NCBI RefSeq assembly: GCF_963921235.1
Contig: NC_086097.1
Location: 63,614,001 to 63,678,000, forward strand
DNA length: 64,000 nucleotides
Direction of reading: 5' to 3'
Origin: Mobula hypostoma
Taxonomy: Eukaryota
The position numbers and the translations under genes were made by a program. The notes beneath the pieces were generated by a model. That model searched no databases and was not told where the DNA came from. It saw only the letters and a list, made by a program, of their open reading frames with translations. Below are positions 12,441 to 62,093 of the stretch, piece after piece (the stretch's first letter is position 1; each line of letters opens with the position of its first letter).

Positions 12441-15400
12441 CACTGGGCAACAATTTTTTTGTTGCTTCCTCCGAATTATTTTCTGTTGAGTTTTTTTCAG
12501 CTTGAAGCTGAACACAAATATAATTTCAGACTACTTGTATCACACAGGAATTTGGAGAAACGCAAAATTAATTTTTATTCAATATAATGCATTTAATTGC
12601 ATAACAGTGTTGATGTTTTGAAATAATTTAACCAAGCTAAAACTGTTTTGTTGATGATTTTCATTTGTACTCTTTGACTGAGGTTTCTCGATTCAGTGTC
12701 CAACAATAATCAGCCAGCACTGATGGAATCCAGTTGCCCTGATACCGTTTCTCCAAGATCGTAATGTCCTGATGAAACCGAGGTTTGTAAAGAAGAAGTC
12801 TAACTGGGAATGCAGGAAATGAATCTTTAGTAACATGTTGTACTTCATGGTTTTGTATGCTTGAAGCATATTGTCAACCAGCTGCATCTGGTTTAGTGCT
12901 CTGTAGTTGCTAAGGAAATTTCCAACAACATCATTGAATGCCTTCAATGCGATTTTCTAGAAGTTCTTCGAATTTGTTGTCATGGATGGCCTGTTTCATT
13001 TGTGGACCAACAAAAATGCCTTCCTTAATCTTGGCATCAGTTATTCTGGGAAACATCTGTCTCAAAAATCAAAATCCTTGATAGTAATTTATAGCCTTTC
13101 TAAAACCTGTCTTGCCATGCAGCATCTGCCATGCCTGAACCGGTCCAGGCATGCCTGGACAGGATAGAAAGCTTAACAGCTTTCATTGTGGGCAACAATT
13201 TAATTGACTGGAAATAACAAATATTGGTGATTTTTTTTTAAAATAGTGCATGATAGGGAAATTTCATGGTTATTTTCATGGACGGAGAAGAGGAGAGCTG
13301 TTGTCATTGGAGACTCTTTAGTCAGGGCAGCAGACAGGAGATTTTGTGGACGTGAGCAGGACACCCGCATGGTTTGTTGCCTCCCGGGTGCCAGGGTCCG
13401 GGATGTCTCTGACCAGGTGCACAACATCCTGGTACGAGAGGGAAAGCAACCAGAAGTCGTGATACATGTTGGGACCAACGACATAGGCAGGAAGAGGGAT
13501 GAGGTCCTGAAGTGTGAGTTTCGGGAATTGGGCAGAAGGCTGAAGAACAGGACCTCAAGGGTGGTGTTCTCAGGATTGCTGCCAGTGCTATGTGACAGTG
13601 ATGGTAAGAATTGGAGGAGATGCCAGTTGAATGCGTGGCTGAGGAGTTGGTGCAGGGAGCAGGGGTTTAGATTTTTAGATCATTGGGATCTCTTCTGGGG
13701 AAGGTGGGACCTGTACAGATTGGATGGGTTGCACCTGAACTCGAGAGGGAGCAATATCCTTGCAGGTAGGTTTGCTAGCATGGTTTGGGAGGGTTTAAAC
13801 TAATTTGCAAGGGAGATGGGATCCAGTGCGGTAGAGCAGTGAAAGAAGTGCATGGAGTAAAGCCAGATCTAACATACAGAGAGGCTTTGAGGAAAGAGAA
13901 GCAGAATAAACGCTGTAAAGACAGTAAGGTAGAAGGGCTGAAATGTGTGTACCTCAGTGCAAGAAGCATCAGGAACAAAGGTGATGAACTGAGAGCTTGG
14001 ATACATACATGGAATTATGATGTAGTGGCTATTACACAGACTTGGCTGGCATCAGGGCAGGAATGGATTCTCAATATTCCTGGATTTCAGTGCTTTAAAA
14101 GGGATAGAGAGGGCGGAAAAAGGGGAGGAGGGGTGGCATTACTGGTCGAGGATACTATTACAGCTACAGAAAGGGTGGGTAATGTAGCAGGATCCTCTTC
14201 TGAGTCAGTATGGGTGGAAGTCAGGAACAGGAAGGGAGCAGTTACTCTATTGGGGGTATTCTATAGGCCCCCTGGTAGCAGCAGAGATACAGAGGAGCAG
14301 ATTGGGAGGCAGATTTTGGAAAGGTGCAAAAATAACCAGGGCTATTATCTTGGGTGACTTTAACTTCCCTAATATTGATTGGCACCTGATTAGTTCCAAG
14401 GGTTTAGATGGTGCAGAATTTGTTAAGTTTGTCCAGGACAGGTTCCTGTCACAGTATGTGGACAGGCCGACTAGGGGGAATGCCATACTAGATCTAGTAC
14501 TAGGTAATGAACCGGGTCAGGTCACAGATCTCTCAGTGGGTGAGCATCTGGGGGACAGTGACCACTGCTCCCTGGCCTTTAGCATTATCATGGAAAAAGA
14601 TAGAATCAGAGAGGACAGGAAAATTTTTAATTGGGGAAGGGCAAATTATTAGGCTATAAGGCTAGAACTTGTGGGTGTGAATTGGGATGATGTTTTTGCA
14701 GGGGAATGTACTATGGACATGTGGTCGATGCTTAGAGATCTCTTGCAGGATGTTAGGGATAAATTTGTCCCGGTGAGGAAGATAAAGAATGGTAGGGTGA
14801 AGGAACCATGGGTGACAAGTGAGGTGGAAAATCTAGTCAGGTGAAAGAAGGCAGCATACATGAGGTTTAGGAAGCAAAGATAAGATGGGTCTATTGAGGA
14901 ATATAGGGAAGCAAGAAAGGAGCTTAAGAAGGGGCCGAGAAGAGCAAGAAGGGGGCATGAGAAGGCCTCGGCGAGTAGGGTAAAGGAAAACCACAAGGCA
15001 TTCTTCAGTTATGTGAAGAAAAAAAGGATGACAGGAGTGAAGGTAGGACCGATTAGAGATAAAGGTGGGAAGATGTGCCTGGAGGCTTTGGAAGTGAGCG
15101 AGATCCTCAATGAATACTTCTCTTCGGTATTCACCAATGAGAAGGAACTTGATGATGGTGAGGACAATATGAGTGAGGTTGATGTTCTGGAGCATGTTGA
15201 TATTAAGGGAGAGGAGGTGTTGGAGTTGTTAAAATGCATTAGGACGGGTAAGTCCCCGGGGCCTGACGTAATTTTCCCCAGGCTACGCCACAAGGCGAGG
15301 GAAGAGATTGCTGAGCCTCTGGCTAGGATATTTATGTCCTCGTTGTCCACGGGAATGGTACCGGAGGATTGGAGGGAGGCGAATGTTGACCCCTTGTTCA

Positions 15401-16864
15401 AAAAAGTTAGTAGGGATAGTCCGGGTAATTATAGACCAGTGAGCCTTACGTCTGTGGTGGGAAAGCTGTTGGAAAAGATTCTTAGAGATAGGATCTCTGG
15501 GCATTTAGAGAATCATGGTCTGATCAGGGACAGTCAGCATGGCTTTGTGAAGGGCAGATCATGTCTAACAAGCCTGATAGAGTTCTTTGAGGAGGTGACC
15601 AGACATATAGATGAGGGTAGTGCAGTGGATGTGATCTATATGGATTTTAGTAAGGCATTTGACAAGGTTCCACACAGTAGGCTTATTCAGAAAGTCAGAA
15701 GGCATGGGATCCAGAGAAGTTTGGCCAGGTGGATGCAGAATTGGCTTGCCTGCAGAAGGCAGAGGGTCGTGGTGGAGGGAATACATTCAGATTGGAGGAT
15801 TGTGACTAGTGGTGTCCCACAAGGATCTGTTCTGGGACCTCTACTTTTCATGATTTTTATTAATGACCTGGATGTGGGGGTAGAAGAGTGGGTTGGCAAG
15901 TTTGCAGATGACACAAAGGTTGGTGGTGTTGTATATAGTGTAGAGGATTGTCAAAGATTGCAGAGAGACATTGACAGGATGCAGAAGTGGGCTGAGAAGT
16001 GGCAGATGGAGTTCAACCCGGAGAAGTGTGAGGTGGTACACTTTGGAAGAACAAACTCCAACGCAGAGTACAAAGTAAATGGCAGGATACTTGGTAGTTT
16101 GGAGGAGCAGAGGGATCTGGGGGTACATGTCCACAGATCCCTGAAAGTTGTCTCACAGGTGGATAGGGTAGTTAAGAAAGCTTATGGGGTGTTAGATTTC
16201 ATAAGTCGAGGGATAGAGTTTAAGGGTCGCGATGTAGTGATGCAGCTCTATAAAACTCTGGTTAGGCCACACTTGGAGTACTGTGTCCAGTTCTGGTCAC
16301 CTCACTATAGGAAGGATGTGGAAGCATTGGAAAGGGTACAGAGGAGATTTACCAGAAGGCTGTCTGGTTTAGAGAGTATGCATTATGATCAGAGATTAAG
16401 GGAGCTAGGGCTTTACTCTTTGGAGAGAAGGAGGATGAGAGGAGACATGATAGAGGTGTACAAGATAATAAGAGGAATAGATAGAGTGGATAGCCAGTGC
16501 CTCTTCCCCAGGGCACCACTGCTCAATACAAGAGGACATGGCTTTAAGGTAAAGGGTGGGAAGTTCAAGGGGGATATTAGAGGAAGGTTTTTACTCAGAG
16601 AGTGGTTGGTGCGTGGAATGCACTACCTGAGTCAGTGGTGGAGGCAGATACACTCGTGAAGTTTAAGAGACTACTAGACAGGTATATGGAGGAATTTAAG
16701 ATGGGGGCTTATATGGGAGGCAGAGTTTGAGGGTCAGCACAACATTGTGGGCCGAAGGGCCTGTACTGTGCTGTACTATTCTATGTTCTATGTTCTATCA
16801 CAAACACCAAATCAAGAAGATACACCCAAAAGTATTCATGTAGCAAAATCTTTGTTGTCCAGTG
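12441..16864 (-). mobile_element. Internally deleted Chapaev3 DNA transposon with both TIRs, split by a CR1 insertion
   Basis: TIRs CACTGGGCAACAA (12441) and TTGTTGTCCAGTG (ending 16864); flanks GAA/TAA resemble the 3-bp TWA TSD; ORF 12693-12947 AFNDVVGNFLSNYRA...LKIHFLHSQLDFF is the transposase C-terminus. Confidence 0.75.
13281..16796 (+). mobile_element. Near full-length young CR1 LINE: ORF1 SGNH esterase domain and ORF2 AP endonuclease plus RT, with a few stops and frameshifts
   Basis: ORF1 VVIGDSLVR...HVGTNDIG...DGLHLN; endonuclease GDFNFP and SDH; RT QHGF, DFSKAFD, GVPQGSVLGP, KFADD; (CTATGTT)n tail. Confidence 0.95.
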
Positions 16865-32057: not shown

Positions 32058-34762
32058 GAGGGGGTGGCGTGGCTTTATTGGTAAGAAATGATATTAAATC
32101 ATTAGAAAGCGGTGATATAGGATCGGAAGGTGCAGAATCTTTATGGGTTGAGCTAAGAAATCGTAGGGGTAAAATGATCCTGATGGCAGTTATTTATAGG
32201 CCTCCAAACAGCTGCAGTGATGTGGACTACAAATTATAACAGGAAATAGAAAAGGCTTGTCAGAAGGGCAGTATTATGATAATTGTGGGGGATGTTAACA
32301 TGCGAGTGGATTGGGAAATCAGGTCGGCACTGGATCTCAAGAGAGAGAATTTGTAGAATGTCTGAGAGATGGCTTTTTAGAACAGCTTGTTGTTGAGCCC
32401 ACTAGGGGATCGGCTGTACTGGATTGGGTATTGTGTAATGAACCGGAGATGATTAGAGAGATTGAGGTGAAGGAACCCTTAGGAGGCAGTGATCATAACA
32501 TGACTGGGTTCACTGTGAAACTTGAAAAAGAGAAGCCAAAATCCGATGTGTCAGTATTTCAGTGGAGTAAAGGAAATTATAGTGGCATGAGAGAGGAGCT
32601 GGCCAAAGTTGAATGGAAAGGGACACTGGCTGGAAAGACAGCAGAGCAGCAGTGGCTGAAGTTTATGCAAGAAGTGAGGAAGGTGCAGGACAGGTGTATT
32701 CCAAAAAAGAAGAAATTTTCAAGTGGAAAAAGGATGCAACCGTGGCTGACAAGAGAAGTCAAAGCCAAAGTCAAAGCAGAGGAGAGAGCATACAAGGAAG
32801 CAAAAATTAGTGGGAAGACAGAGGATTGGGAAGTTTTTAAAAGCTTACAAAAGGAAACTAAGAAGGTCATTAAGAGGGAAAATATTAACTATGAAAGGAA
32901 GCTAGCAAATAATATCAAAGGGGATACTAAAAGCTTTTTCAAGTGCATAAAGAGTAAAAGACAGGTGAGAGCAGATATAGGACTGATAGAAAATGATGCT
33001 GGAGAAATTATAATGGGAGATAAGAAGATGACGGAAGAACTGAACGAGTATTTTGCATCAGTCTTCACTGAGGAAGACATCAGCAGTATACCGGACACTC
33101 AAGGGTGGCAGGGAAGAGAAGTGTGTGCAGTCACAATTACGACAGAGAAAGTACTCAGGAAGCTGAATAGTCTAAAGGTAGATAAATCTCCCGGACCAGA
33201 TGGAATGCACCCTCGTGTTCTGAAGTAAGTAGCTGTGGAGACTGCGGAGGCATTAGCGATGATCTTTCAAAAGTCGATAGATTCTGGCATGGTTCCGGAG
33301 GACTGGAAGATTGCAAACGTCACTCCACTACTTAAGAAGGGGGCAAGGAAGCAAAAAGGAAATTATAGACCTGTTAGCTTGACATCGGTTGTTGGGAAGT
33401 TGTTGGAGTCGATTGTCAAGGATGAGGTTACAGAGTACCTGGAGGCATATGACAAGATAGGCAGAACTCAGCATGAATTCCTTAAAGGAAAATCCTGCCT
33501 GACAAACCTATTACAATTTTTTGAGGAAATTACCAGTAGGCTAGACAAGGGAGATGCAGTGGATGTTGTATATTTGGATTTTCAGAAGGCCTTTGACAAG
33601 GTGCCACACATGAGGTTACTTAACAAGATAAAAGCCCATGGAATTACAGGAAATTTACCTATGTGGATAGAGCATTGGCTGATTGGCAGGAAACAGAAAG
33701 TGGGAATAAAGGGATCCTATTCTGTTTGGCTGCCGGTTACCAGTGGTGTTCCACAGGGGTCCATGTTGGGGCCGCTTCTTTTTACATTGCATATCAACGA
33801 TTTGGATTATGGAATAGATGGCTTTGTGGCTAAGTTTGCTGACGATACGAAGATAGGTGGAGGGGCCGGGAGTGCTGAGGAAACAGAGAGCCTGCAGAGA
33901 GACTTGGATAGATTGGAAGAATGGGCAAAGAAGTGGCAAATGAAGTACAATGTTGGACATGTATGGTTATGCACTTTGGCAGAAGAAATAAACAGGCAGA
34001 CTATTATTTAAATGGGGAGACAATTCAAAGTTCTGAGATGCGACGGGACTTGGGAGTCCTTGTACAGGATACCCTTAAGGTTAACCTCCAGGTTGAGTCG
34101 GTGGTGAAGAAGGAGATTGCAATGTTGGCATTCATTTCTAGAGGAATAGAGTATAGGAGCAGGGATGTGATGTTGAGGCTCTATAAGGCACTGGTGAGAC
34201 CTCACTTGGAGTACTGTGGGCAGTTTTGGTCTCCTTATTTACGAAAGGATGTGCTGACATTGGAGAGGGTACAGAGAAGATACCCTAGAATGATTCCAGG
34301 AATGAGAGGGTTAACGTATGAGGAACATTTGTCCGCTCTTGGACTGTATTCCTTGGAGTTTAGAAGAATGAGGGGAGGCCTCATAGAAACATTTCAAATG
34401 TTGAAAGGCATGGACAGAGTGGATGTGGCAAAGTTGTTTCCCATGATGGGGGAGTCTAGTACGAGAGGGAATGACTTAAGGATTGAAGGGCGCCATTCAG
34501 AACAGAAATGCGAAGAAACTTTTTCAGCCAGAGGGTGGTGAATCTATGGAATTTGTTCCCACGGGCGGCAGTGGAGGCCAAGTGTATTTAAGGCAGAGAT
34601 TGATAGGTATCTGAGTAACCAGGGCATCAAAGGTTATGGTGAGAAGGTGGGACAGTGGGACTAAGTGGGAGAATGGATCAGCTCATGATAAAATGGCGGA
34701 GCAGACTCGATGGGCCGAATGGCCAACTTCTGTTCCTTTGTCTTATGGTCTTATGGTCTTAT
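32058..34762 (+). mobile_element. Young CR1 LINE ORF2 (endonuclease-RT) with few lesions, 5'-truncated
   Basis: ORFs 32311-33228, 33235-34011 and 33921-34541 carry SDHN, KSPGPDG, DFQKAFD, KFADD; (TCTTATGG)n tail; the host CR1 QHG codons resume after it. Confidence 0.95.
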
Positions 34763-36859
34763 GATTTCCTTAAGGGAACGTGTTGAAATTCTTCGAGACT
34801 GCACTTATTCTTCGAGTTAAAGGGAATACAGTGGAAGTTATATATATGGACTTTCAGAAGGCCTTTGACAAGGTGCCACACATGAGGCTGCTTACCAAGT
34901 TAAGAGCCCATGGTATTACAGGAACGTTATTGGTATGGTTAAAGCATTGGCTGATTGGTAGGACGTAGCGAGTGGGAATTTAAGGATCCTTTTCTGGTTG
35001 GCTGCCAGTGACTAGTGTTGTTCTGCAGGGGTCGCTGTCAGGACCACTTCTTTTTATGCTGTAAATAAATGATTTAGATAATGGAATAAATAGCATTGTT
35101 GCAAGGTTTGCAGATGATACAAAGATTGGTGGAGGGGAAGGTAGTGTTGAGGAAACAGGTTGCAGAAGGACTTAGATAGATTAGGAGAATGGGCAATAAA
35201 GTGGCAAATGAAATACAATGTTGGAAAATGAATGGTCATCTACTTTAGTACTAGAAATAAGTGTGCAGAATATTTTCTAAATGGGGGGGGGAATCCAAAA
35301 ATCAAAGATGCAAAGGGACTTGGGAGTTTAAAGGTTAACTTGCAGATAGACAGTGGTGAAGAAGGCAAATGCAATGTTAGCATTCCTTTTAGGGATGTGA
35401 TGCTGAGGCTTTACAAGGCACTGGTGAGGTCTCCTTTGGGCTCCTCATCTAAGAAAAGGTGTGCTGGCTTTGGAGAGGGTTCAAAAGAGATTCACAAGGC
35501 TGATTACGGGAATAAAATGGTTATCATACGAGGAATGATTGGTGGCTCTGGGTCTGCACTTGCTAGAATTCAGAAGGATGAGGGGGGGGATCTCATTGAA
35601 ATCTTGCAGATGTTGAAAGGCCTAGACAGAGTAGCTATGGAAAGGATATTTCCCATGGTGGGGGAGTCTAGGACAAGAGGGCACAGCCTCAGGATGGAGG
35701 GGTGTCCATTTAAAACAGAGTTGCGAAGAAATTTCTTTAGCCAGAGGATGGTGAATTCGTGGAATTTGCTACCACAGGCAGCTGTGGAGGTCAGGTCATT
35801 GGGTTTATTTAAGCAAGAGCTTGGTAGGTTCTTGGTAGGACACAGCATCAAAGGTTCTGGGGAGAAGGCCAGGGGGTGGGGCTGAGGAGGGGAAAAAAGG
35901 ATCCACCATAACTGAATGGTGGAGCAGAGTCGATAGGTCAATGGGCTATTTCTGCTCCTATGTCTTATGGTCTTGTGGTCTTAAAACAGTTTGTGATGCC
36001 AATATCCCTTTTCTTATTTTTTTGTAAAAAGGAATTTTCCACTAATAAATGTCATGAGGATGTACACAAAAAAATTTAAAAATCCCTCTCCAGAAACTGC
36101 TGCTTATTGCCTTTATTTTACCAACCTTGAATATTTGACATCAGATCCTTTATTTAATTTAAACATTTTACACTTCCAAGAATTTCTCTTCCCCTTTTTA
36201 TTCAGATAGTGTAGATTTTCTAAACAGTCATGGTTTAACAGCACCGTGGCATTAGGACAAACAACGTCCATGGAAATATGTTTCACAAATTTCACTCTGC
36301 TGTTTTGCTCTCAGCACAGAAAAAGTAAAATGTACTATGACATCTGCAGTCAAATCAAATCTTTCATAAGGATTACTGCATGCTGCAGTAACTCACTCCA
36401 AAGACTAAGTTCCTACTACTCACTTTGATAAAAGCTGAAGGAAACCACAATACTGTAATTAGCCCTTGCTCTGCCCAGATTTACCTTGTTTAATGTATTT
36501 TGCACCCAGTGGTAACTTCATGTACAATTCATGTCATATAATCAGTCTTTCAAACATCATACTCTGATAAACAGAACTTTTTCTGTCAGAGACATCTATA
36601 ACTGTATTTTTTTCTTAATTTCTACTTTTCATTCTGAGCTTTGTAAAATAAGGCCACATTTTCAATTGGAATGATTTCCATGTGCTTTTCTCTTCAAATT
36701 TCTTTAATCTCTCTCTTGCAATTTTCTCAACCACTGTTTCTTACAAATGAATTAAGTTACTTTAGATGATGCAAATTGAAGATTATGAATAACCAAGCAT
36801 GTATAGAACCACAGAATTATTACAGCACAAATTTGGTGACAATTGACCTATTTAATCTA

Positions 36860-37442: not shown

Positions 37443-40026
37443 ACACAGTACAGCACAGTACAGGCCCTTTGGCCCACAATGTTGTGCTGACCCTCAAACC
37501 CTGCCTCCCATATAAGCCCCTACATTAAATTCCTCCATATACCTGTCTAGAAGTCTCTTAAATTTCTCTAGTGTATCTGCCTCCATCACTGACTCAGGCA
37601 GTGCATTCCACGCACCAACCACTCTCTGAGTAAAAAACCTTCCTCTAATATCCCCCTTGAACTTCCCACCCCTTACCTTAAAGCCATGTCCTCTTGCATT
37701 GAGCAGTGGTGCCCTGGGGAAGAGGTGCTGGCTATCCACTTTATCGATTCTTCTTAATATCTTGAAAACCTCTATCCTGTCTCCTTCCATCCTCCTTCTC
37801 TCCAAAGAGTAAAGCCCTAGCTCCCTTAATCTCTGATCATAATCCATACTCTCTAAACCTGGCAACATCCTGGTAAACCTCCCCTGTACCCTTTCCGATG
37901 CTTCCACGTCCTTCCTATAGTGAGGTGACCAGAACTGGACACAGTACTCCAAGTGCGACCTAACCAGAGTTTTATAGAGCTGCATCATTACATCGCGACT
38001 CTTAAACTCTATCCCTCGACTTATGAAAGCTAACACCCCATAAGCTTTCTTAACTACCCTATCCACCTGTGAGGCAACTTTCAGGGATCTGTGGACATGT
38101 ACCCCCAGATCCCTCTGCTCCTCCACGCTACCAAGTATCCTGCCATTTTCCTTGTACACTGCCTTGGAGTTTGTCCTTCCAAAGTGTACCACCTCACACT
38201 TCTCCGGGTTGAACTCCATCTGCCACTTCTCAGCACACTTCTGCATCCTATCAATGTCTCTCTGCAATCTTTGACAATCCTCTACACTATCTACAACACC
38301 ACCAACCTTTGTGCTATCTGCAAACTTGCCAACCCACCCTTCTATCCCCACATCCAGGTCATTAATAAAAATCACGAAAAGTAGAGGTCCCAGAACCGAT
38401 CCTTGTGGGACACCACTAATCACAACCCTCCAATCCGAATGTACTCCCTCCACCACGACCCTCTGCTTTCTGCAGGCAAGCCAATTCTGAATCCACCTGG
38501 CCAAACTTCCCTGGATCCCATTCCTTCTGACTTTCTGAATAAGCCTACCATGTGGAGCCTTGTCCAATGCCTTACTAAAATCCATATAGATCACATCCAC
38601 TGCACTACCCTCATCTATATGTCTGGTCACCTCCTCAAAGAACTCTATCAGTCTTGTTAGACACGATCTGCCCTTCACAAAGCCATGCTGACTGCCCCTG
38701 ATCAGACCATGATTCTCTAAATGCCCATAGATCCTATCTTTAAGAATCTTTTCCAACAGATTTCCCATCACAGATGTAAGGCTCACTGGTCTATAATTAC
38801 CCAGACTATCCCTACTACCTTTTTTGAACAAGGGGACAACATTCGCCTCCCTCCAATCCTCCAGTACCATTCCCGTGGACAACAAGGACATAAAGATCCT
38901 AGCCAGAGACTCAGCAATCTCTTCCCTTGCCTCATGAAGCAGCCTGGGGAATATTCCGTCAGGCACCGGGGACTTATCCGTCCTAATTTGTTTTAACAAC
39001 TCCAACACCTCCTCTCCCTTAATGTCAACATGCTACAGAACATCAACCTCACTCATATTGTCCTCACCGTCATCAAGTTCCCTCTCATTGGTGAATACCA
39101 AAGAGAAGTATTCATTGAGGACATCGCTTACTTCCACAGCCTCCAGGCACATCTTCCCACCTTTATCTCTAATCGGTCCTACCTTCACTCCTGTCATCCT
39201 TTTGTTCTTCACATAATTGAAAAATGCCTTGGGGTTTTCCTTTACCCTACTCGTCAAGGCCTTCTCATGCCCCCTTCTTGCTCTCCTCAGCCCCTTCTTA
39301 AGCTCCTTTCTTGCTACCCTATATTCCTCAATAGACCCATCTGATCCTTGCTTCCTAAACCTCATGTATGCTGCCTTCTTCCACTTGACTAGATTTTCCA
39401 CCTCACTTGTCAACCATGGTTCCTTCACCCTACCATTCTTTATCTTCCTCACTGGGACAAATTTATCCCTAACATCCTGCAAGAGATCCCTAAACATCAA
39501 CCACATGTCCACAGTACATTTCCCTGCAAAAACATCATCCCAATTCACACTCGCAATTTCTAGCCTTTTAGCCTCATAATTTGCCTTTCCCCAATTAAAA
39601 ATGTTCCTGCCCTCTCTGGTTCTATCCTTTTCCATGATAATGCTAAAGGCCAGGGAGCGGTGGTCACTGTCCCCCAGATGCTCACCCACTGAGAGATCTG
39701 TGACCTGACCCAGTTCGTTACCTAATACTAGACCTAGTATGGCATTCCCCCTTCTCGCTCTGTCCACAGACTGTGACAGGAATCCGTTCTGGACATGCTT
39801 AACAAACTCTGCCCTGTCTAAACCCTTGGAACTAATCTGGTGCCAATCAATATTAGGGAAGTTAAAGTCACCCATGATAATAACCCTGTTATTTTTGCAC
39901 CTTTCCAAATTCTGCCTCCCAATCTGATCCTCAGTATCCCTGCTGCTACCAGGGGGCCTATAGAATACTCCCAATAGAGTAACTGCTCCCTTCCTGTTCC
40001 TGACTTTCACCCATACTGACTCAAAA
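37443..40026 (-). mobile_element. Young CR1 LINE of the same family as 13281-16796, 5'-truncated in the endonuclease; the retained ORF2 is broken by one stop
   Basis: ORFs 39033-40010 and 37494-39008 are in the same frame and near-identical to the plus-strand copy; the RT motif reads KFADS. Confidence 0.95.
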
Positions 40027-41989
40027 TTATGGATTTATTGAGTATGCCCACAAGAAAATGAATTTCAGGGTCGTATATGGTGACATATGTACCTTGATAA
40101 TAAATTCACTTTGTACTTTGAAGACCACAAGAAAAGGCAGAGAGCTGTGACTAAAGCCCAGTCTATCACGAAAACCAACCTCCCCTCCTTTGACCATCTG
40201 CACTTTCCATTGTATTGGGAAAACAAGCATTGTAATCAAAACCCCCACCCACTCCAGTGGTTCTCTGTTCCCCATTCCATTAGATAGAAGGTATGAAAGC
40301 TTGAGAACACCTACCAGCAAGCTCAAGGACAGCTTCTATAAAGCTATTACAAGAGTCCTGAACAGACTTCTTGCATGATAAAGATGGACTCTTGATCTCT
40401 CAGTCTACCCCATCATGCCCCTTGCACCTTATTTGTCTATCTGCACTGAACTTTCTCTTTAACTGTACGACTACACTCTGCATTCTGCTCTTGGCACTAT
40501 CTCAGTATACTTCTGTGTGGAATGGCTGTCAAACAAAACTTCACTGCATTTTGATATATGTGACAATAATAAATCAGTGAATGAATTCCATGAACTTTCC
40601 AAAGTGTGAAGTTAGATTAACGAGTCATTTATCTACCTCGTTTTTGGAATCTCGAAACACTCCGTCACCAAACACTGTTACATCTTTTGAGTTCTGCCTT
40701 ACCATCCAGCATTGTACTCAAGCACAGTTTGAATTATTGGAATCTAAACCTTCAGTCAAGATGGTGCCAGTGACAACGGTTCCTTGGGCAGCATATTCCA
40801 AATAGCCAATTTCTTCAATTATTTCACTTTTTCTGCCCCTTCTGCTTATTCTTTTTGCCTTGATTGTGCTACGAAAACTGTCAGAGCCTGTGATGTGCAA
40901 TTCAGAATTCGATGAAATGATCTAACGCTCTGTGATGCCCGGAGAGACACCTCATGGAAAAGACCAGAGACCGAGAACATGAGCTGACTCGTGGAAAGGA
41001 CCAGAGTCGAGGTACGGGGTCATGAACAATTCCAGTAAGCAGCATTATCTTGTGGTGTCAGCAGTGTATGATTGTTCAATGTGACTACACACCAAGATCC
41101 ACAATGAACACTTCCCAAACCTTGCATATCTAATTTTAGCTACAATGTAATTTCTATACCATTAAAATTAGATTAAAATCTCTTGAAATTAGCTTTGCTT
41201 TCCCTCTGATCTGATTACAGACCAAAAAAAAAACCAACAAGCAGATGAGTTAATTTTAGATATTTAAGGAAACTGGGCATAAAGCTAATGAAGGCACAAG
41301 AGATTGCTGGAACGTACGGCAACACACAAAGTGTTGAAGGAATTCAGCGAGTCAGACAGCATCAGTGGAAGGAGTTAATTAAAGGAAAATAATACCTCAG
41401 TCAGCTTTCCAACATTTCACAGAAGTTTATTGAATTACAGCATAAATAAAGTGCATGAAATAGTCTCCTGCCTTTATTCTCAGTTTGAATATGATGTATT
41501 CTAAGGGTGAGGAGAATTAAATTAAGCTAGGGAAATATTTTCATAGGAATAAATGTGAGATACAAACAACAAATCCAGGCACAAATTGATTTCTAATTTA
41601 AAAAAAAATAAAGTTAGTCCTCATCCACAAAGCCTTGAGAAGACTTTCAATCATGTAAATAGAGATTGCATTAGAGTAATAAGAAATGCAGAGCTGAATA
41701 ATTAGAGTGATATAAAGGATGCTGAATTTCAGACCTGAGATGTCGGCATTATTCTCCTAGTGCTAAACTTTACTTAAAGTGTAACTTTAAAGTCATTAAA
41801 AGTTTTGCCAGAACAAATAAACTGCTTCCAGTTTAGTCACATACAGATCAGACTGGGTAGGGGTGGCAGATGTCCCCTGAAAGGCATTACTGAACCTGAT
41901 GAGGTTTTGATAATAAACTGGTAATTAACCATCATTTAACTATTTATGTATATGAAATTGCACAATTAATTACTTGAAAAAATATATAC

Positions 41990-47319: not shown

Positions 47320-50300
47320 GGAATAGAGTGAGGTGGAGGATGAATGCGTGGATGAGGGATTGGAGCAGGGGGCAGGGATTCAGACTTCTAGATCATTAGG
47401 ACCATTTTTGGGGCAGGCATAACCTGTACAAAAAGGACAGGTTGCACTTGAATCCAAGGGGGATCAATATCCTGGCAGGGAGGTTAGCTAAGGCTATTGG
47501 GGAGAGTTTAAACTAGAATTGCTGGGGGGTGGGAACTGAACTGAAGAGCCAGAGGAAGGGGTGGTTGGCTCATGTATATAGAAAGCATGGAGACAGTGCG
47601 AGAGGGAGGATAGGCAGGTGATAGAGAAGGAATACGCTCAGACCGATTGTTTGAGATGTGTCTATTTTAATGCAAGAAGCATTCATGAACAAAGCAGACG
47701 AACCTAGAGCGTGGATCAGTACTTGGATCTATGATGTTGTGGCCATTACAGAGACTTGGATGGCTCAGGGGCAGGAATGGTTACTTCGAGTGCCAGGTTT
47801 TAGATGTTTCAGAAAGGACAGGGAGGGAGGGAAAAGAGGTGGGGGCATGGCACTGCTGATCAGAGATAATGTCATGGCTTCAGATAAGGAGGAAGTCATG
47901 GAGGGATTGTCTACTGAGTCTTTGTGGGTGGAAATTACAAATAGGAAAGGGTCAATAACTCTACTGGGTGTTTTTTATAGTCCACCCAATAGTAACAGGG
48001 ACATCAAGGAGCAGATAGGGAGACAGCTGGAAAAGTGCAATAATAACAGTGTGATAGTGGAAAAGTGTGCATGGAACTGGAGGAGATAGTTGAGGTACTT
48101 AATGAATAAACTGGGCTGAGAAGTGGCAGTTGGAGTTCAACTCATATAAGTGTTTGGTGGTTCGGTTTGGTAGGTCAAATGTGATGGCAGAATTTAGTAT
48201 TAATGGTAAGACACTTAGCAGTGTGGAGGATCAGAGAGATCTTGGGGTCCGAAATCCATAGGATTCTCAAAGCTGCTGTTCAGGTTGACACTGTGGTTAA
48301 GAAGGCTTACAGTGCATTGGCCTTCATCAACCATAGGACTGAGTTTAAGAGTCGAGAGGTAATGTTACAGCCACATATGACCCTGATCAGATCCCACTTG
48401 GAGTACTGTGCTCACTTCTGGTCACCTCACTACAGGAAGGATGTGCAAACTATAGAAAGGGTGCAGAGGAGATTTACAAGGATGTTGCCTGGATTGGGAA
48501 GCATGCCTTACGAGGATAGGTTGAGTGAACCTGGCCACTTCTCCTTGGAGCAATGGAGGATGAGAGGTGACCTGATAGAGGTGTATAAGAATGCTAGACA
48601 ACCAGGTGACCCGTCGGGGCACCCTTTGAGAGAAGGGTAGTGCAGTCTGATGTGACCAGAATGAACATTAAATTTCCCTGAATGCTATTGCTATCGCTTT
48701 GCTTTGAAAATTAAAGAAGAGAAACTCAGTTTATTAAAGAAGAAAGACGCATAGCAAGACAAATATAGCTCCTCCTCGGTTAACGAAGGACACTTTTGGT
48801 GACACATTTCTGGTTGCCCTTCCACCCTTCAAGAATACTCTAACGTTTTCATTTCTCTTTCCCCGGCTTAAAGCCACATACAGCTGACCATGCTGGAATA
48901 CCGGTTTCTCCAAATAAATCACCACATTCTCCATGGTGTGGCCTTGCACCTTATGTATAGTCATAGCAAAGCATGACTGTATCGGGAACTGGCTCCGCTG
49001 AAGAGGGACGTCTTCCCCTTCTGATAAACTGAGAGTCATTCTTGGGATCATGACTATGTCATTTTTGAATGCACCAATGTTTATCTTGGCTACGATAAGA
49101 TTGTCGTACAGTTCTTCCACCACCATTCGCGATCCATTGCAAAGCCTTGATGCATCCAAGTGCCTCATTGAAATGATGGGAGATCCCCTCTTCAATTCCA
49201 GTTTATGTGGTGGCAATCCAGAGAGTTCGACCGAATCAAGGAATTCTGTTGGAAAATGAGTGGCGTTACCTCCTTCACTTACGGCATTGAAGGAACAGTA
49301 TTCTTTCATGATTCCAGGGAAGCCTCTAATGCATGTGAAGTTTATTTTTTGCATCATTTCATTGAGAGGAACCAAGATAGAATTCCTCGAGAACAGTTCT
49401 GCAGGATTGTCGAATGTAGGGTAGATGAAATCAATACATTCTTCCATAGTTTTTGCTGGCAGAATCATATCTTCAGGTAATTCAATTTCATCGTTTTCAT
49501 TTTTCTCAATCTTGTCTTCTCCAACATCCAATAAGAACTCAGAATATCATCCTTCTTCCTCACTCAATGGCATGTTTCTCTTCAATTGAAACTTGATGAA
49601 GCTTCTCCATAAGTAGGATTTTTTATGCATGACTTCTCCACATCAGCATCATTTCCTCATTTCACAACTGCTAGAAGCTGACGGAAATTGCCACAGCAAA
49701 TGGTTAAAATACCCCCGAAGGCCTCATTCTTGTCACATACATCATGAAGAGTCCGGTCCACGGCTTTGAAGCTCTCCCTCCTAATCATGGAGCACTCATC
49801 CCAGACAATAAGCCTCGCAGTTTGGAGTAAATTTGCAGTATTGGTAGTTTTATCGATGTTACAAAGGGCATCTTCATTGACTTTGAGGGGTATCTTGAAT
49901 CTTGAATGCGCTGTTCTACCACCAGGCATCAATGTTGCAGCAATACCAGATGATGCTACAGCAATAGCAACACCTCCATCTCCCCTAACTTTAGCGAGGA
50001 TCAAGTTGATGATAAATGTCTTGCCCGCTCCTCCTGGTGCATCAATGAAAATCATTGAAGAGAGATTCCTTTCCAAGCAGTCGCACACATATTCATATAC
50101 TTCTCTTTGCTCATTATTCAATAGGGGCTCCTTCTGTGAAACAAATCCCTGCTGTTCATCTGTGTTGTATTGCAGTTCACACAAAGATTCCAGATTGCCA
50201 GCACTTTGACTAAGTGTACCGTTTCTTGGTGTTGGCAAGTTATATTCTTCAAGTGTTTTGCCCAAATTCTTAAGTTTCTCTTGGAAATACAGATGAGCTT

Positions 50301-51560
50301 GTCCGTGATGCCTGTCATCAATCATGATATTAAGATCATTTATAGTTCTGCTCTCCATTGGTAAGAAATCTTCAGACATTGCATTCTTGAACCGGTTCCA
50401 TAATTGCTGTGGATTGTTGATTTCAGTGTTTGTTAGCAAGACGACAAACAAATCTCTCGTTGCTCTGGGCATTCTTGTTCTCTCTGCCTCTTCCATAGTT
50501 TGCTGCCAATGATCGTCAGCTTGCAACAATCCTCTCTCTCTGCAGATATCTTTGAAGGATGGAAGGATATCTCCATCATGTGTTTTCAATGATTCGAAAG
50601 ATACTGGCCCCTCTATGTGATGAAGAAGAAGTCTCAATTAGTAGAGGTCACCACTTTGTGGAGAAACGGTATACACTCGACCCAGAACATTTGCTTCAGA
50701 AATCCTGGAGTAGTCCTCCACTCTTTTCCCCATTCTCTTTCTTTCCCATCTCTTATTAGTCCAAGTGTAGAATCTGGGAATAGGGTGTTTCAAAGTAGTT
50801 CATTACAATGAGATTTAAATATCTCTTATTGATGGGTCGCAGTTTGATCTGTCCCAATCCTGCACATGCTGATGGTGATTAGCAGAATGTGACCACTCGA
50901 AATAGAGCTGCCCTGCCCTTTTGCTGCGGTTGGTGTCGCTGCTGTGAGCATCGTGAGGCGCTGCTGAGGCTGGCCATGCGCATGCGTCATGGTGTCGCAT
51001 CGCAGTTTCCATCGAAGCTGGAATCGGGTGTGGAAAGCGAGGCCTGTTGACCAGTGAGCAATTTTAAATGAATATGAGCAATTTTAAATGAATATAACCC
51101 TGACCTTTGCATGCATTCTGTAAGTTAGCGCATTTTAAGTCCACTTTAGTCAAAAAAAGTGCCACTGTAATTCATCGTTTGGGCTAATTGGAGGTCACAA
51201 ACAGGCAAACAGAGCATGAGAATTTTAGTAGTATATAGATGAGAGGCATTGATCGTGTGGATAGTCGGAGGCTTTTTCCCAGGGCTGAAATGACTATCAC
51301 AAGAGGGCACAGTTTTAAGGTGCTTGGAAGAAGACACAGAGGAGATGGCAGGGGTGAGTTTCTTATGCAGAGAGTGGTGAGTGCATGGAATGGGCTGCCG
51401 GCAGCGGTGGTGGAGGTGGATACGATAGGGTCTTTTAAGAGACTCCTGGATAGATACATGGAGCTTAGAAAAATAGAGGGCTATGGGTAACCCTAAGTAA
51501 TTTCTAAAGTAAGTACATGTTCAGCACAGCATTGTGGGCCAAAGGGCCTGTTCTGTCCTG
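47320..51560 (+). mobile_element. Deleted CR1 LINE split by the Helitron
   Basis: Esterase tail, YDVVAITETW endonuclease, RT C-terminus ...GDLIEVYK | MRGIDRVDS... continuous across 48593/51240. Confidence 0.9.
48594..51239 (-). mobile_element. Internally deleted Helitron (2646 bp) retaining the PIF1-family helicase region
   Basis: Minus-strand 5' end TCTATATACTACT, 3' end CTAG with subterminal hairpin GGTGACCC-GTC-GGGGCACC (48605-48623), no TSD; ORFs with FIDAPGGAGKT, GRTAHSRFKIP, IVWDECSM, FAMTIHKVQG, HGQLYVALSR. Confidence 0.95.
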
Positions 51561-53468
51561 GTAGACCCATAGTTTCTGCCTGCTCCTGTCCCACCAAACT
51601 TGTATCTGCCCACCTGGACTCCATTTTGTCACCCATTGTTCAGTCCCTCCCCACCTACATCCAGGATACATCCCATACCCTCCACTTCTTCAAGAACTTC
51701 CAATTCCCCGGTCCCGACAGCTTCATTTTCACTATGGATGTCCAATCCTTATACACCTCCATTCCCCAACAAGAAGGCCTCAAAGCCCTCCGCTACTTTC
51801 TGGATAATAGACCTCACCAGTTCCACACCACCACTACCCTCCTCCGGTTGGCGGAACTGGTTCTCACACTTAATAACTTCTCTTTTGGCTCTTCCCACTT
51901 TCTTCAGACTAAGGGTGTAGCTATGGGAACTCGCATGGGCCCCGGCTATGCCTGCCTCTTCGTTGGTTATGTGGAACAGTCTGTGCTCCAAACCTGTTCT
52001 GGTACTGCTCTCCAAACTTTCCTTTGGTACATTGACGACTACATTGGTGCTGCTTCCTGCACCCATGCTGAGCTCGTCAATTTCATCCACTTTACTTCAA
52101 ACTTCCACCCAGCCCTCAAATTCACTTGGTCTATCTCGGACACTTCTCTCTCCTTTCTCGATCTCTCAGTCTCCATCTCTGGAGACAGACTGTCCACTGA
52201 CATCTTCTACAAGCCCACTGACTCTCATAACTACCTCGACTATACCTCTTCCCACCCCGCCACATGCAAAAACGCCATTCCCTATTCCTAGTTCCTCCGT
52301 CTCCGCTGCATCTGCTCCCAGGATGAGGCTTTCCATTCCAGGACATCTCAAATGTCCTCTTTCTTTAAGGATCGTGGTTTCCTTTTGACCGTCATCAATG
52401 ATGCCCTCACCCGCATCTCCTCCATTTCCCACACTTCGGCCCTCACCCCATCCTCCCGCCACCACAACAGGGACAGAGTTCCCCTTGTCCTCACCTACCA
52501 CCCCACCAGCCTCCGGATCCAGCACATTATCCTCCGCAACTTCCGCCACCTTCAACAGGACCCCACCACTAAGCACATCTTTCCCTCTCCACCCCCTCCG
52601 CTTTCCGCAGGGATCGGTCCCTCTGCGACTCCTTTATCCACACATCCCTCCCCACGGATCTCCCACCTGGCATTTATCCTTGTAAGAGTAAGTGCTACAC
52701 CTCCTCTCTTGCCACCATTCAGGGCCCCAAACAGTCCTTCCAGGTGAGGCAACACTTCATTTGGGAGTCTGTTGGGGTCATCTATTGCATCCGGTGCTCC
52801 CGGTACGGCATCCTCTACATCAGTGAAACCCGACGCAGATTGGGGGACCACTTCGTCGAGCACCTCCGCTCCGTCTGCCACAACAGATAGGATCTCCCAG
52901 TAGCCACTCAACTTCAACTCTGCTTCCCACTCCCATTCAGATATGTCCATACATGGCCTCCTCTACTGCCATGATGAGGCCAAACTCAGGTTGGAGGAGC
53001 AACACCTCACATACCGTCTAGGTAGTCTCCAGCCCCTTGGTATGAACATAGAATTCTCCAACTTCCGGTAATTCCCTCCCCCGCCCTTCCCCTATCCCTA
53101 TGTCACTCTGCTCCCTCCCCCAGCTGCCTATCACCTCCCACATGGTTCTGCCTCCTTCTACTACCCATTGTGTTTTCCCCTATTCCTTCTTCACCTTTCC
53201 TGTCTATCACCTCCCTGATTCCCCTCCTCCACCCCTTTATCTTTCCCCTTACTGGTTTTTCACCTGGCACCTACCTGCCTTCTCCTTCCCACCCTCCCCC
53301 CACCTTCTTTATAGGGCCCCTGCCCCTTCCCTCTTCAGTCCTGACGAAGGGTTCCGACCTGAAACGTCGACTCATCGTTTCCACGGATGCTGCCCGACCT
53401 GCTGAGTTCCTCCAGTATGTTGTGAGTGTTGCTTTGACCCCAGCATCTGCAGATTATTTTGTGTTTAC
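51561..53468 (+). mobile_element. Penelope-like element: RT, GIY-YIG endonuclease and 3' pseudo-LTR, 5'-truncated
   Basis: ORF 51626-52291 MDVQSLYTSIP, GVAMGTRMGP, YIDD, FLDL, YKPTD; GVIYCIRCSR...LYISET near 52775; terminal hammerhead. Confidence 0.95.
53336..53373 (+). ncRNA. Minimal type I hammerhead ribozyme in the Penelope pseudo-LTR
   Basis: AGTC-CTGACGA-AGG(gttccga)CCT-GAAA-CG-TC-GACT: intact CUGANGA and GAAA boxes, GUC cleavage triplet, stem I AGTC/GACT, palindromic ACGT stem III. Confidence 0.8.
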
Positions 53469-58900: not shown

Positions 58901-59723
58901 ATGGGATCATCAAACAACGACAAACTAAGTATCATGAGGGAAGTGTACTACAGTCTACGAATCTTCCTATGGTCTTAATTAGAATCAAAGCAACCCAAAA
59001 AAACAGAAAATTAAATTAAGTCCATTCAAGATAGTAACAGGGGAGCCTATGTCACTGCCAGCAGCTCTTGATCTTAGAGAGGCTGGTATACACAATATGG
59101 CAGACAATTTAGCTACCTATTGTGTGAAATTAACCCAAGCTGTACAGTCTGCTTCTCAGCAAATTTCTGCTGCTTGGAGTGGTCCAACAGAAGGAGGATA
59201 TGTCCCAATTCCTGGTGAGTGGTCCAGATCAAAAAACCTCATAAGAAGCCACTGGAGCTTACTTATCAAGTGTAGGTAACTAATAATTCAGCATAGAAAA
59301 GTAGGTAAAGGTAAGTGGATGCATGCTAGCCACTCCAAGAGAGCTAAGGTAGCACCTGTCAAGGACAACAAGTGCTGATGTTAATGTGTTAGTAATCTCT
59401 GACTTAGTGTCTATGCTACTGGGCTACAGTGAACAAATCACTAACCCACCAGAAGACTTCAAACAGATTTGATAACTGTGATATCATGTGTCACGTGTAA
59501 GAACATGATTGGACAGGGTTCTGAGCATGCGCAGAAATGAGAGAACGATCAAGAAACTTGTATGGTGAAAATGTGGTTGCTGTTTGCTGTTGTAAATAAA
59601 AGTTCTAGTTCTTATTCTTCCAGAATGTGGTTTGTTCTTAGTAACCCATGGTACGTATAAAGAACACAACATGGTGTCAGAAGTCACTCTGGAAGAATAA
59701 TACGTTGCACTAACACGGGAGGA

Positions 59724-60960
59724 GTGAAGATAATCGAAAAAAAGAGCGTGAGTTGTTTTGGTGTGCTAACGGTTTTAAAAAATGGAAGTTTTGCAACCCC
59801 CATTGATGTTCAGCTGACTGGAAACATAGCCGAAAAATGTAAAAGATTTAAACAGCATTTTGAAATGTATTTATCGGCGATCAGAGCAGATGTGAAATCG
59901 GAAGAAACAAAAGCTGCAATTCTACTCCACGTAATAGATGACAATGCAATTGAGGTATATAACCATTTTACTTTTGAAAATGGAGATAATTTGAATCTAA
60001 AAGCGATAATGGACAAATTTGACGCATTTTCTATACCGAAGCGCAATGTGACATATGAATCGTACAAATTTTTCAAATGTTGGCAGAGATCTGGTGAAAC
60101 GATTGATCAGTTTGTTACGGAGTTGAGAAACCACAGTAAAACATGCCAGTTTGCAGAACTGACAGACTCTCTCATTACAGACAAAATTGTTCACAGCATT
60201 CGGGATAATGCTCTGAGAGGAAGGCTGTTAAGAGAACAAGACGTAAATTTGGAAAAAGGTTTGATTCTCTGCAAAGCTTCGGAAACCGTGACCTTGCAGG
60301 CTAAAGAGCTTTTTATTGAGAACTGCAACTTACACGCTGTGTGCGAACATATTAGAAAAGATAATAAAACAACAACAAAACTCACAGAGAGCAAGACGTC
60401 GTCTGAGAGAAAAAAGTCGTGTAATCGCTGTGGGCGGCAGCACCAGCCAAAACAGTGTCCAGCGTATGGGAAAATGTGCAACGACTGCAGTAAGAGTAAT
60501 CATTTTTCACGCTGTTGCAGAAGTAGAAAGAAAATAAAACAAGTAAGTGCAGTGCTTGAAAATGAACTGGAGGAGTTTTATATAGATGTGCTTTGTGAAA
60601 ACAAGCAAAGTAAGATTGACTGGACTATTCCATTGCAAGTGAACCAAAACAATATTCTGTTTAAACTTGATACTGGAGCACAAGTAAATGTTCTTGCAGA
60701 ATCTGAGTTTAATGCATTAAAGCCAAGACCAAAGTTATATAAGACAAATATAAAAGTGACTGGGTATTCAGGTGCAGACATTCCAGTTAAAGGAACATGT
60801 GTGGCAAAAGAATATATGGAATATATGTGTGGCAAAAGTATCACACAAAAATATTGTGCACACGCTTTCATTTGTGGTGGTGCCAAAGAATGTACAGTCA
60901 ATACTGGGTTTATCTGCCTGTGAGAGACTGAATTTGGTGAAAAGAGTGTTAGTCCTGGAT
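59724..60960 (+). pseudogene. Gypsy Gag-protease
   Basis: ORF 59724-60923: CNRCGRQHQPKQC, CNDCSKSNHFSRC, LFKLDTGAQVNVL; continues after a 28-bp frameshifting duplication as ...[17 protein letters not shown]. Confidence 0.9.
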
Positions 60961-61119
60961 ATTGAAGAAGTTAAAGCACAAGTGAAGGAATTGAGAAGTT
61001 TTATTGAAATAATGAAGTCTCAGCATAAAAAAGAGGTTACACAGTTAACGAGTGAATTAGATGAAGAAAAGAAGATTCGTATTTCATTACAAATGGAAGA
61101 AAAAGGAATTAAGAAAGCT
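60961..61119 (+). pseudogene. SH3KBP1: Transduced fragment of the SH3KBP1/CIN85 C-terminal coiled coil
   Basis: [53 protein letters not shown] aligns without gaps to the human CIN85 C-terminus as I recall it ([53 protein letters not shown]). Confidence 0.85.
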
Positions 61120-62093
61120 ACAGTCCTTGAAGTACAACCCAGATGATACATGGTCCAAACAGAGGAGGGAGAAGTGTTAAGAAGAAATCGCAAAGACCTC
61201 AAGAAAGAGCCAACTTCAGAGTTTCAGTTAACTGATGCAGACCAGACAAAACATGGAAATAACAACGAAACACAAGAACTGTGTGAACCACTTAGAAGGT
61301 CTACTCGTGTTCATAAACCCCCAGAGAGACTGGTAGTGACATGTTAAATTATGTATTTGTTCTGATCAATATTGCTAATTGTTTTTCTTTTTAAGGAAAG
61401 GAAGATGTGCTATCACGTGTCACGTGTAAGAATGTGATTGTACAGAGTTCTGAGCATGCGTAGAAATGACAGAATGATCGAGAAACTTGTATGGTGAAAA
61501 TGTGGTTGCTGTTTTCTGTTGTAAATAAAAGTTCTAGTTCTTATTCTTCCAGAATATGATTTGTTCTTAGTAACCCACGGTACATATAAAGAACACAACA
61601 ATAATGACTGGACCTTATGGTGCTGTTACATTTTAACCAAATTTTTCTACTCACAACATGCCAATTAAGATGACTCACAATGTGTACTTGCGGGTATCAG
61701 ATAAATTTACTAATATTGTTAATGTTTCTAGCTGTCAGGATGCCACACACTTCAAAAGAAGTATCAGAGAGATTTAAAATGTATATGCGGCTTTAGAAAG
61801 AGTGAGCAATGACACTGCTGGTGCCTTGGAGGAAATAACAACAGAAATAGTTACTATGCATAAGATGGTTTGTCAAAATCAGATATTCTCTCATAGGCAA
61901 GGAGCTGACAGGTCTGACAATGAAACTGATTTAGCTGATCATATTTGTAAATAAATAGCTCAAATACATCAATTTGATGAATGATATTTCTTTGACTGGA
62001 TTCAATAAACTCTAGGAAGATGGGGTTACTCAATAATTATAATATTTGTCCTGACATGCCTTATCATAATTTATGTCTTTTTTATTGTATAAG

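Follow-up and report, generated by a model that had tools for sequence, protein, structure and literature searches.

How did a piece of a host gene come to occupy the place of the polymerase (pol) core of a retrotransposon? The question is raised by a complete long terminal repeat (LTR) element of the Ty3/Gypsy type, 2124 bp in length, which lies on the plus strand at 59477-61600 of a stretch of the Mobula hypostoma genome (NC_086097.1, positions 63,614,001 to 63,678,000; 64,000 nucleotides, hereafter the window). The domain order of this element is gag, protease, cargo and integrase tail. The catalytic pol core is absent, and the cargo is a stretch of 53 codons (60961-61119, plus strand) that corresponds to the C-terminal coiled coil of SH3KBP1 (CIN85). 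Our analysis suggests, with a probability of roughly 0.85, that the element is a dead copy of a non-autonomous ray Ty3/Gypsy family, in which a piece of spliced SH3KBP1 mRNA was captured, amplified, trimmed and recombined with chimeras carrying RABEP1 and SLU7 pieces. The element is not a one-off capture; it is an old, broken member of a family with at least 150 copies.

Identity of the cargo

The initial annotation had placed 53 non-retroelement codons between the protease end and the integrase tail, and the translation is as claimed there. The identity to human SH3KBP1 that it gave (35 of 53 residues) is also the count on the HMMER midline, and 47 of the 53 residues are identical to the host's own protein. 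In a search of the PDB, the SH3KBP1 chains 5abs_A (E = 9.1e-15) and 2n64_A (E = 1.3e-14) covered all 53 residues, and the next matches had E values of 0.18 and 0.93. No Pfam family scored above the cut-off with either the 53 amino acids (aa) or the frame of a longer form of the cargo. This longer form, which comprises 142 aa (L047:1506-1931), is 93% identical to M. hypostoma SH3KBP1 at 96% coverage. Of its 19 protein matches, 18 are SH3KBP1 or contain its C-terminal stretch, and the remaining one is a predicted protein (P0020) named RABEP1-like. The architecture of the SH3KBP1 gene family consists of three SH3 domains, a proline-rich region and a C-terminal coiled coil, whereas the element contains no more than the C-terminal 53 codons (142 in the long form). 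Judged by these matches, the cargo is a fragment of the SH3KBP1 gene and not a member of the SH3KBP1/CIN85 gene family.

The direction of the transfer also deserves consideration. A coiled coil native to the retroelement lineage and later acquired by SH3KBP1 is hardly conceivable, as the stretch is matched in SH3KBP1 proteins from rays to chimaera, coelacanth and bichir, and in the human protein through the PDB, is split by introns in the host gene, and is missing from the autonomous element described below.

Spliced SH3KBP1 mRNA as the source

All 67 listed matches (66 scored places) in a genome search with whole SH3KBP1 were C-terminal intronless pieces corresponding to residues 513-669. Since this search was swamped by element copies, the host gene was located with the upstream part of the protein. 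Its exons lie on contig C18 at 80.65-80.90 Mb, and the last of them are found at offsets 3064-3210, 7391-7641, 8729-8792 and 10806-10871 of C18:80899001, with GT/AG borders. The stretch that was captured (426 nt) is split over these four exons by introns of approximately 4.2, 1.1 and 2.0 kb; its start lies within the first exon, at CAAGAGAGAACAG, and its end within the last, four codons short of the stop. Three introns are gone from the long form and two from the window copy, whose cargo (positions 268-425 of the capture) spans the exon junctions at capture positions 335 and 399 and agrees with the spliced exons of the host at 150 of 158 nt. Because the host splits the stretch over four exons whereas the copies contain no introns, the source of the cargo was spliced SH3KBP1 mRNA. 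The split over terminal exons that the initial annotation had mentioned, and the RNA intermediate that it had proposed, are thus borne out.

The founder capture and its junctions

An autonomous relative on contig C21 (L055+L007) aligns with positions 2-1489 and 1636-2124 of the window element, and between these two blocks it contains RVT_1 (1e-16), RT_RNaseH_2 (3.8e-15), Integrase_H2C2 (4.7e-15) and rve. The gag-protease-reverse transcriptase (RT)-RNase H-integrase order of Ty3/Gypsy elements is present only in this relative, and the absence of the catalytic core from the window element, as previously claimed, is confirmed by the domains found between the same points. Copies of the autonomous form continue past the protease/cargo boundary as ...DLMKEYEDLFKGLGCLPGEHTIKIDNTVPP... 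and do not contain the SH3KBP1 stretch. Approximately 2.4 kb of RT, RNase H and integrase have therefore been replaced, not interrupted, between the capture junctions.

The original capture comprises 142 codons (426 nt) and starts in the middle of an exon, after ...DLMKE of the element. In the longest form (L047), a single open frame of 277 aa reads ...VLVLDNDTESEYSELMKE/QEKTEFDS...(142 aa)...GIKKT/TVLEVHPRSYMVQ, where slashes mark the junctions. At the left junction, the parent element (...GATGAAAGAG/TATGAGG) and the host (...GAGAAGAG/CAAGAG; CAAGAGAG) have AAGAG (5 bp) in common. At the right junction, the host (...AAGAAAGC/ACTT, or at greater length TTAAGAAAGC/ACTTCAA) and the parent (...ACAGAAAGC/TACAGTA) share AGAAAGC (7 bp); this microhomology, common to host exon E and the autonomous element, lies at 61113-61119 (plus strand) in the window. 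Both joins keep the reading frame. Among the S-type copies listed, the alignments that extend to the 3' end of the capture stop at host position 421-425 of 426, and this shared end fits one founding event.

Right-junction microhomology had been suspected before and is present, although the string then proposed, AAGAAAGCT, is close to but not the same as AGAAAGC. Both boundaries of the 53 codons had also been taken as template-switch points. This holds for the right one, but the left one at 60961, as the alignments place it, is a later in-frame deletion of 102 codons (13 of the element and 89 of the cargo) and not a capture junction. On the same comparison, the window copy does not represent a primary capture but descends, broken and with an in-frame deletion, from the 142-codon founder.

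The founder thus exchanged some 2.4 kb of RT, RNase H and the integrase core for 426 nt of spliced SH3KBP1 mRNA, in frame at short microhomologies. This capture probably occurred in a virus-like particle, where reverse transcriptase would have switched templates twice, between the element RNA and a co-packaged host mRNA. The chimera was then inserted many times with 5-bp target duplications, the later copies probably being mobilised in trans by autonomous relatives. Subsequent in-frame deletions diversified it, leaving the window copy with the last 53 codons, the coiled coil, and recombination took place with sister chimeras that bear RABEP1 and SLU7 mRNA pieces.

A DNA-level origin, in which a processed SH3KBP1 pseudogene made by a long interspersed nuclear element (LINE) arose within a Gypsy copy (or the reverse) and pol was deleted later but before the spread, might be suspected from the many LINE-type RT and endonuclease open reading frames in the window, which point to plentiful LINE machinery in the genome. 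However, the cargo has neither a poly(A) tail, a 3' untranslated region nor a flanking duplication of its own; it is cut within the coding sequence at both ends and runs straight into element sequence. In addition, it is located exactly at the site of the missing ~2.4 kb of pol, microhomology and frame are kept at both junctions, and the same architecture recurs independently, with other breakpoints, for RABEP1 and SLU7. We consider such an origin very improbable.

Family size, derivatives and age

A search of the genome (3.48 Gb) with the window element yielded 85 matches from 40 scored of 1487 first-look candidates. The 53-aa cargo was uninterrupted in all of the 150 places scored among 483 first-look candidates, with E values of 3e-13 or better. 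Three copies (L002-L004) align colinearly with the window copy; in many others there are 70-232 extra bases exactly at the protease/cargo boundary, and in a further set 66 more. Another frequent variant (L005, L009, L010, L011, L017 and L024, among others) has lost the last third of the coiled coil (...LMNEL/KKEPTSEF). Copy L002 (G000:C96:46745134-46750241, positions 1742-3349) has the exact architecture of the window copy and remains open for 536 aa between gag and the natural stop, with LTRs that are 94.9% identical and a perfect 5-bp target duplication.

Alignment of the LTR pair was possible for 17 of 21 copies, with identities of 85.6-94.9%. Of these 17 copies, 7 have a perfect 5-bp target duplication, 4 agree at four of five positions, 1 has none and 5 could not be judged. 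Given such duplications, the integrase that inserted the chimeras must have come from elsewhere, as they do not encode one themselves. The divergence of the cargo from the host mRNA averages 4.5% (range, 1.4-7.1%) in 45 copies, a set from which two duplicate loci had been removed beforehand and three near-identical neighbours dropped. The identity of the window copy to other copies is approximately 84-86% over the LTR and gag and rises to 91-94% over the protease, cargo and tail, a pattern on which the window copy looks mosaic.

In three sequencing runs, which are only guessed to be RNA, contig depth was much higher on the coiled coil than on the flanking element, a pattern that host SH3KBP1 mRNA would also produce and that we do not take as a sign of expression. 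Among the contigs listed from four sequencing runs, none bridged the window-type junction.

Copies L013, L016 and L046 are broken by unrelated insertions, one of which is a LINE-type RT frame and another a GC-rich element that splits the SH3KBP1 cargo. Copies L006 (C63) and L024 (C5) have the same 5-bp flank, ACTAC, on different contigs and may have been inserted into copies of another repeat. Near-identical chimeric copies are clustered on G000:C22 at 4.06 Mb and 5.77 Mb (L031, L033, L035 and L040) and on G000:C1 at 168.38-168.43 Mb, which suggests segmental duplication on top of retrotransposition.

Further cargos from RABEP1 and SLU7

SH3KBP1 is not the only source of cargo. Copy L060 (G000:C45:33811065-33814337, minus strand) contains 109 codons of spliced RABEP1, the gene of rabaptin-5 (L060:1447-1773), between the start of RT and the integrase tail, reading in frame ...HQLKTE/LKRQN...(109 aa)...LSEGQ/GDKIRMQDKMNTWTQKATV. 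This cargo is 92% identical to Mobula RABEP1 (Pfam Rabaptin, 6.7e-50), and the stretch is intronless at no fewer than 150 genomic places (150 scored of 260). The host RABEP1 exon on C71 ends with ...AIMK/gt and the next exon is more than 6.3 kb away, whereas the element reads through as AIMKETLREY. The left capture junction shows AGAGCT microhomology. Because its breakpoints differ from those of the SH3KBP1 capture, the RABEP1 capture was a separate event. An apparent older and longer RABEP1 capture (40-55% identity, residues 58-276) was rejected; in copy L063 the low-identity part is gag aligned by chance.

The cargos are also found in combination. Mosaics L056-L059 contain 47 SH3KBP1 coiled-coil codons within the rabaptin stretch, at EEV and EVE. 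In L063 (G000:C1:34000001-34005000, positions 2352-3131), an open frame of 260 aa consists of a gag knuckle (with loss of the protease), a piece of RABEP1, the SH3KBP1 coiled coil, a short part of the integrase tail and a third cargo (2877-3086), a C-terminal piece of SLU7. The third cargo had 94 genomic matches and joins two host exons that lie 5.66 kb apart on C21 (C21:67583220 and C21:67588977), directly downstream of five Slu7-domain exons. It gave a weak match to SLU7 in the PDB (E = 0.0098) and no usable match in the ESM Atlas, and the 38-aa host SLU7 exon had no match in the PDB. The identification as SLU7 is based on the two joined host exons, the weak PDB match and the neighbouring Slu7-domain exons.

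Translations of chimeras are present among predicted stingray proteins, namely P0006 and P0020 of Hemitrygon akajei and P0051 of Hypanus sabinus, under the names 'uncharacterized' or 'RABEP1-like'. P0020 combines a gag knuckle, the protease, the rabaptin stretch, the SH3KBP1 coiled coil and the integrase tail. In P0006, 60 residues of the RT N-terminus are joined to SH3KBP1 at EVIKKAP, a junction type unseen among the fetched loci. A near-length protein search for annotated chimeras returned two proteins, both from Hemitrygon, which is no evidence of absence elsewhere. Hundreds of intronless look-alikes of SH3KBP1, RABEP1 and SLU7 will confuse gene prediction and orthology in rays.

Frame-keeping and constraint on the cargo

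We distinguished 18 types of rearrangement junction, namely the six junctions of the three captures plus those of deletions and mosaics. For each of them, at least one copy reads through in frame, and no frame-breaking type was seen. As the chance of keeping the frame is one in three for each junction, 18 of 18 is not accidental. Private mutations of the cargo relative to the host show a nonsynonymous to synonymous (N:S) ratio of 171:56 (3.05), close to the neutral expectation of 2.5-3.0. These data favour a requirement for an unbroken polyprotein frame, with the cargo as a passenger. The constraint on replicating lineages would then be to maintain a single polyprotein frame, open from gag as far as the natural stop, and not a particular function of the cargo, which is most likely carried along; the frame may be kept for stability or for translation-linked packaging of the genomic RNA.

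The open frames themselves could be taken to mean that the host has domesticated one of the intact chimeras as a gene of its own, such as that of L002 (536 aa) or one on C21 (563 aa), the family being made up of decayed relatives of this gene. Stop-free frames of 445-563 aa do exist at several copies, and such frames were called as the stingray proteins mentioned above. However, L002 retains both LTRs and its target duplication, chance alone should leave a few frames intact in a family of at least 150 copies, and the private mutations look neutral. We regard domestication as highly improbable.

Several points weigh against the origin that we prefer, or against parts of it. The left junction can also be read as a 10-nt homology (GATGAAAGAG) with a 5-nt slip. 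Template switching within a particle was deduced from the anatomy of the elements, not observed. The family copy numbers (at least 150) are lower bounds and not a census. Furthermore, identity between the cargo and the host mRNA is 95-98.6% even where the surrounding backbone matches the autonomous copy at only 70-79%. A single capture therefore needs the exchange of modules by recombination, and exchange between co-packaged RNAs would be the simplest account of this gap. With regard to the cargo as a passenger, the coiled-coil piece is the part kept in the window type and in the mosaics, and derived mutations shared by at least two copies have an N:S of 41:27, compared with 171:56 for private ones (Fisher p = 0.02). 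This depletion of amino-acid changes hints at some protein-level constraint, although the test is weak, its effect lies outside the coiled coil and it is open to recurrent mutation.

The last two points would be expected if the cargo were functional, that is, if the self-associating coiled coil, placed behind Gag-protease, aided multimerisation of the protein of the defective element, its entry into the particles of autonomous elements or its link to endosomal traffic, and coiled-coil cargos were selected. The coiled coil survives in the shortest derivative (the window type) and, as 47 codons, in the RABEP1 mosaics. Moreover, the RABEP1 cargo likewise comes from a coiled coil, that of a protein acting as an endosomal adaptor; three chains are present in the solved structure of the SH3KBP1 coiled coil (2n64), and every junction is in frame. 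However, within the coiled-coil codons the shared N:S (22:7) is the same as the private one (72:28), the depletion coming from the upstream, non-coiled part (19:20). Many copies belong to the variant that has lost the last third of the coiled coil, RABEP1-only elements such as L060 do without the SH3KBP1 piece altogether, and the SLU7 cargo is a charged tail of a splicing factor and not an endocytic coiled coil. Purine-rich coding sequence may also simply offer more microhomology to a purine-rich element. We therefore consider a functional cargo unlikely. A bolder form of the idea, in which the family is a serial, frame-selective exon shuffler and the helix-forming host pieces (SH3KBP1, RABEP1 and SLU7) that replaced pol are selected parasitic adaptations, appears distinctly unlikely. 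If it were true, a fused cargo would let the Gag-protease polyprotein multimerise with, or ride in, autonomous particles and gain a replication advantage.

Relation to known captures of host sequences

Pack-MULEs and Helitrons amplify and shuffle host gene fragments, but their captures take place at the DNA level and retain introns, and their transposition chemistry is different. The ray family likewise amplifies and shuffles host fragments and differs in that capture occurred at the mRNA level. Among LTR elements, maize Bs1, a plant element, reportedly kept gag, lost pol and transduced parts of three cellular genes, and is said to have a very low copy number. Tan et al. (Genome Res 2016; PMC5131818) include Bs1 as an LTR element carrying captured host gene sequence, and neither systematic frame-keeping nor family-wide mosaics are indicated in their passage on it. 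The same report cites the capture of FAM8A1 by HERV-K in human, in which a processed host gene lies in an LTR element with microsimilarity at the fusion points (PMC5131818). That capture is a single untranscribed pseudogene locus, whereas the ray chimera is an amplified family.

In acutely transforming retroviruses, as in the ray family, host mRNA is taken up through recombination in reverse transcription, replicative genes are lost, a helper is needed and the cargo is often an in-frame gag fusion. These viruses, however, are infectious and somatically selected for an oncogenic product, whereas the ray element is a germline Gypsy element without env; its cargos are fragments of adaptor and splicing proteins, not known oncogenes, and there is no sign of oncogenic-type selection. 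The comparison with such viruses in the initial annotation is therefore a fair analogy of mechanism, but the direct precedent is LTR-mediated retroposition, as presented in the sections of Tan et al. (PMC5131818) on which we draw.

That study reported chimeric retrocopies inside LTR retrotransposons and attributed them to LTR-mediated retroposition (PMC5131818). In those chimeras, as in the ray family, a portion of the internal open reading frame is replaced by an intronless piece of host mRNA, both LTRs are retained, and neither poly(A) nor hallmarks of the L1 type are present. The chimeras are non-autonomous and can be retroposed again, and some loci involve multiple genes. The microsimilarity at the fusion points has a median of 6 bp, compared with 5 and 7 bp in the SH3KBP1 capture. 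The anatomy of the ray element thus shows every feature described in those sections for LTR-mediated retroposition (PMC5131818). The retrocopies described there are found at one or a few sites, whereas the ray chimera has at least 150 copies with derived in-frame deletions and mosaics. In addition, and unlike those retrocopies, the ray cargo comprises only part of a coding sequence, joined to the polyprotein in frame at all junctions seen, and its host is an elasmobranch, a group outside the survey as those sections describe it.

The mechanism itself has therefore already been published; what differs, and is unusual, are the scale, persistence, serial capture and strict frame-keeping. Documented captures of host mRNA by LTR retrotransposons are mostly single loci, and the ray family shows the aftermath of such an event: a fragment was carried to at least 150 sites, trimmed in frame and recombined with two other fragments. 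The family thus offers a natural series in which to ask what a defective LTR element cannot lose if it is to be mobilised, and an intact polyprotein frame is what the data suggest. A literature search on SH3KBP1 with retrotransposons returned nothing relevant by title or the start of the abstract, the capture of RABEP1 and SLU7 being outside that search.

Structure and decay of the window element

The structural features listed in the initial annotation (paired 195-bp LTRs, a Leu-type primer-binding site, a polypurine tract and a target-site duplication) were all confirmed; unless stated otherwise, features are on the plus strand. The 5' LTR (59477-59671) and the 3' LTR (61406-61600) both begin with TG and end with CA, and global alignment gave 180 identical positions of 195, with 15 mismatches and no gaps. 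In a repeat search of the region, these two 195-nt LTRs were the one direct-repeat family and the sole long direct repeat. The flanking target-site duplication, ATAAC at 59472-59476 and ATAAT at 61601-61605, agrees at four of five positions.

The primer-binding site TGGTGTCAGAAGT (13 nt; 59672-59684) adjoins the 5' LTR and is complementary to the 3' end of tRNA-Leu, including the added CCA. A pattern composed of the T-loop motif and the reverse complement of the tRNA-body part of this site was searched genome-wide and found at 5 places, compared with 0 (forward) and 1 (reverse) for the control. Three of the 5 places were submitted to ARAGORN, which called one as tRNA-Leu with the matched string at its 3' end and made no call for the other two. 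No tRNA gene was found within the window. The polypurine tract AAGGAAAGGAAGA (61393-61405) abuts the 3' LTR. Both the primer-binding site and the polypurine tract recur in the other family copies with both LTRs that were compared.

The gag region (59782-60560, the end being approximate) is defined by homology to at least 40 other copies and contains two CCHC-type knuckles, CNRCGRQHQPKQC and CNDCSKSNHFSRCC. The frame of its initiator ATG at 59782 closes after 11 codons (59815-59817), and the gag homology goes on in another frame. The aspartic protease (60561-60960, the start being approximate) contains LDTGAQ and is broken by an insertion of 28 nt (at approximately 60797-60824) that is absent from copy L002 and shifts the frame. 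In a Pfam scan, Asp_protease_2 remained below the cut-off (E = 0.0036) and zf-CCHC was not matched; both motifs are visible in the letters. The end of the protease, the cargo and ATVLEVQPR* are read in one frame (60760-61146). The integrase C-terminal tail (61120-61347) is in frame with the cargo, is 91% identical to the autonomous copy from element position 1636 and ends with ...STRVHKPPERLVVTC and the natural stop (61345-61347), but it is interrupted by a premature in-frame TGA at 61144-61146. The early closure of the gag frame, the insertion in the protease and this TGA indicate that the window copy is dead. No env-like frame was seen in either the window element or the autonomous copy.

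Other mobile elements in the window

Three LINE-type endonuclease/RT frames of up to 591 aa are located at 13231-16659, 32299-35885 and 37494-40034 (minus strand), and the strong blocks of GC skew that the composition profile of the window shows are due to them. In addition, a PIF1/Helitron-like helicase frame (326 + 270 aa) at 48734-50637 (minus strand) and a separate RT-like frame with a YIDD motif at 51497-52291 show that other mobile elements are present in the window.

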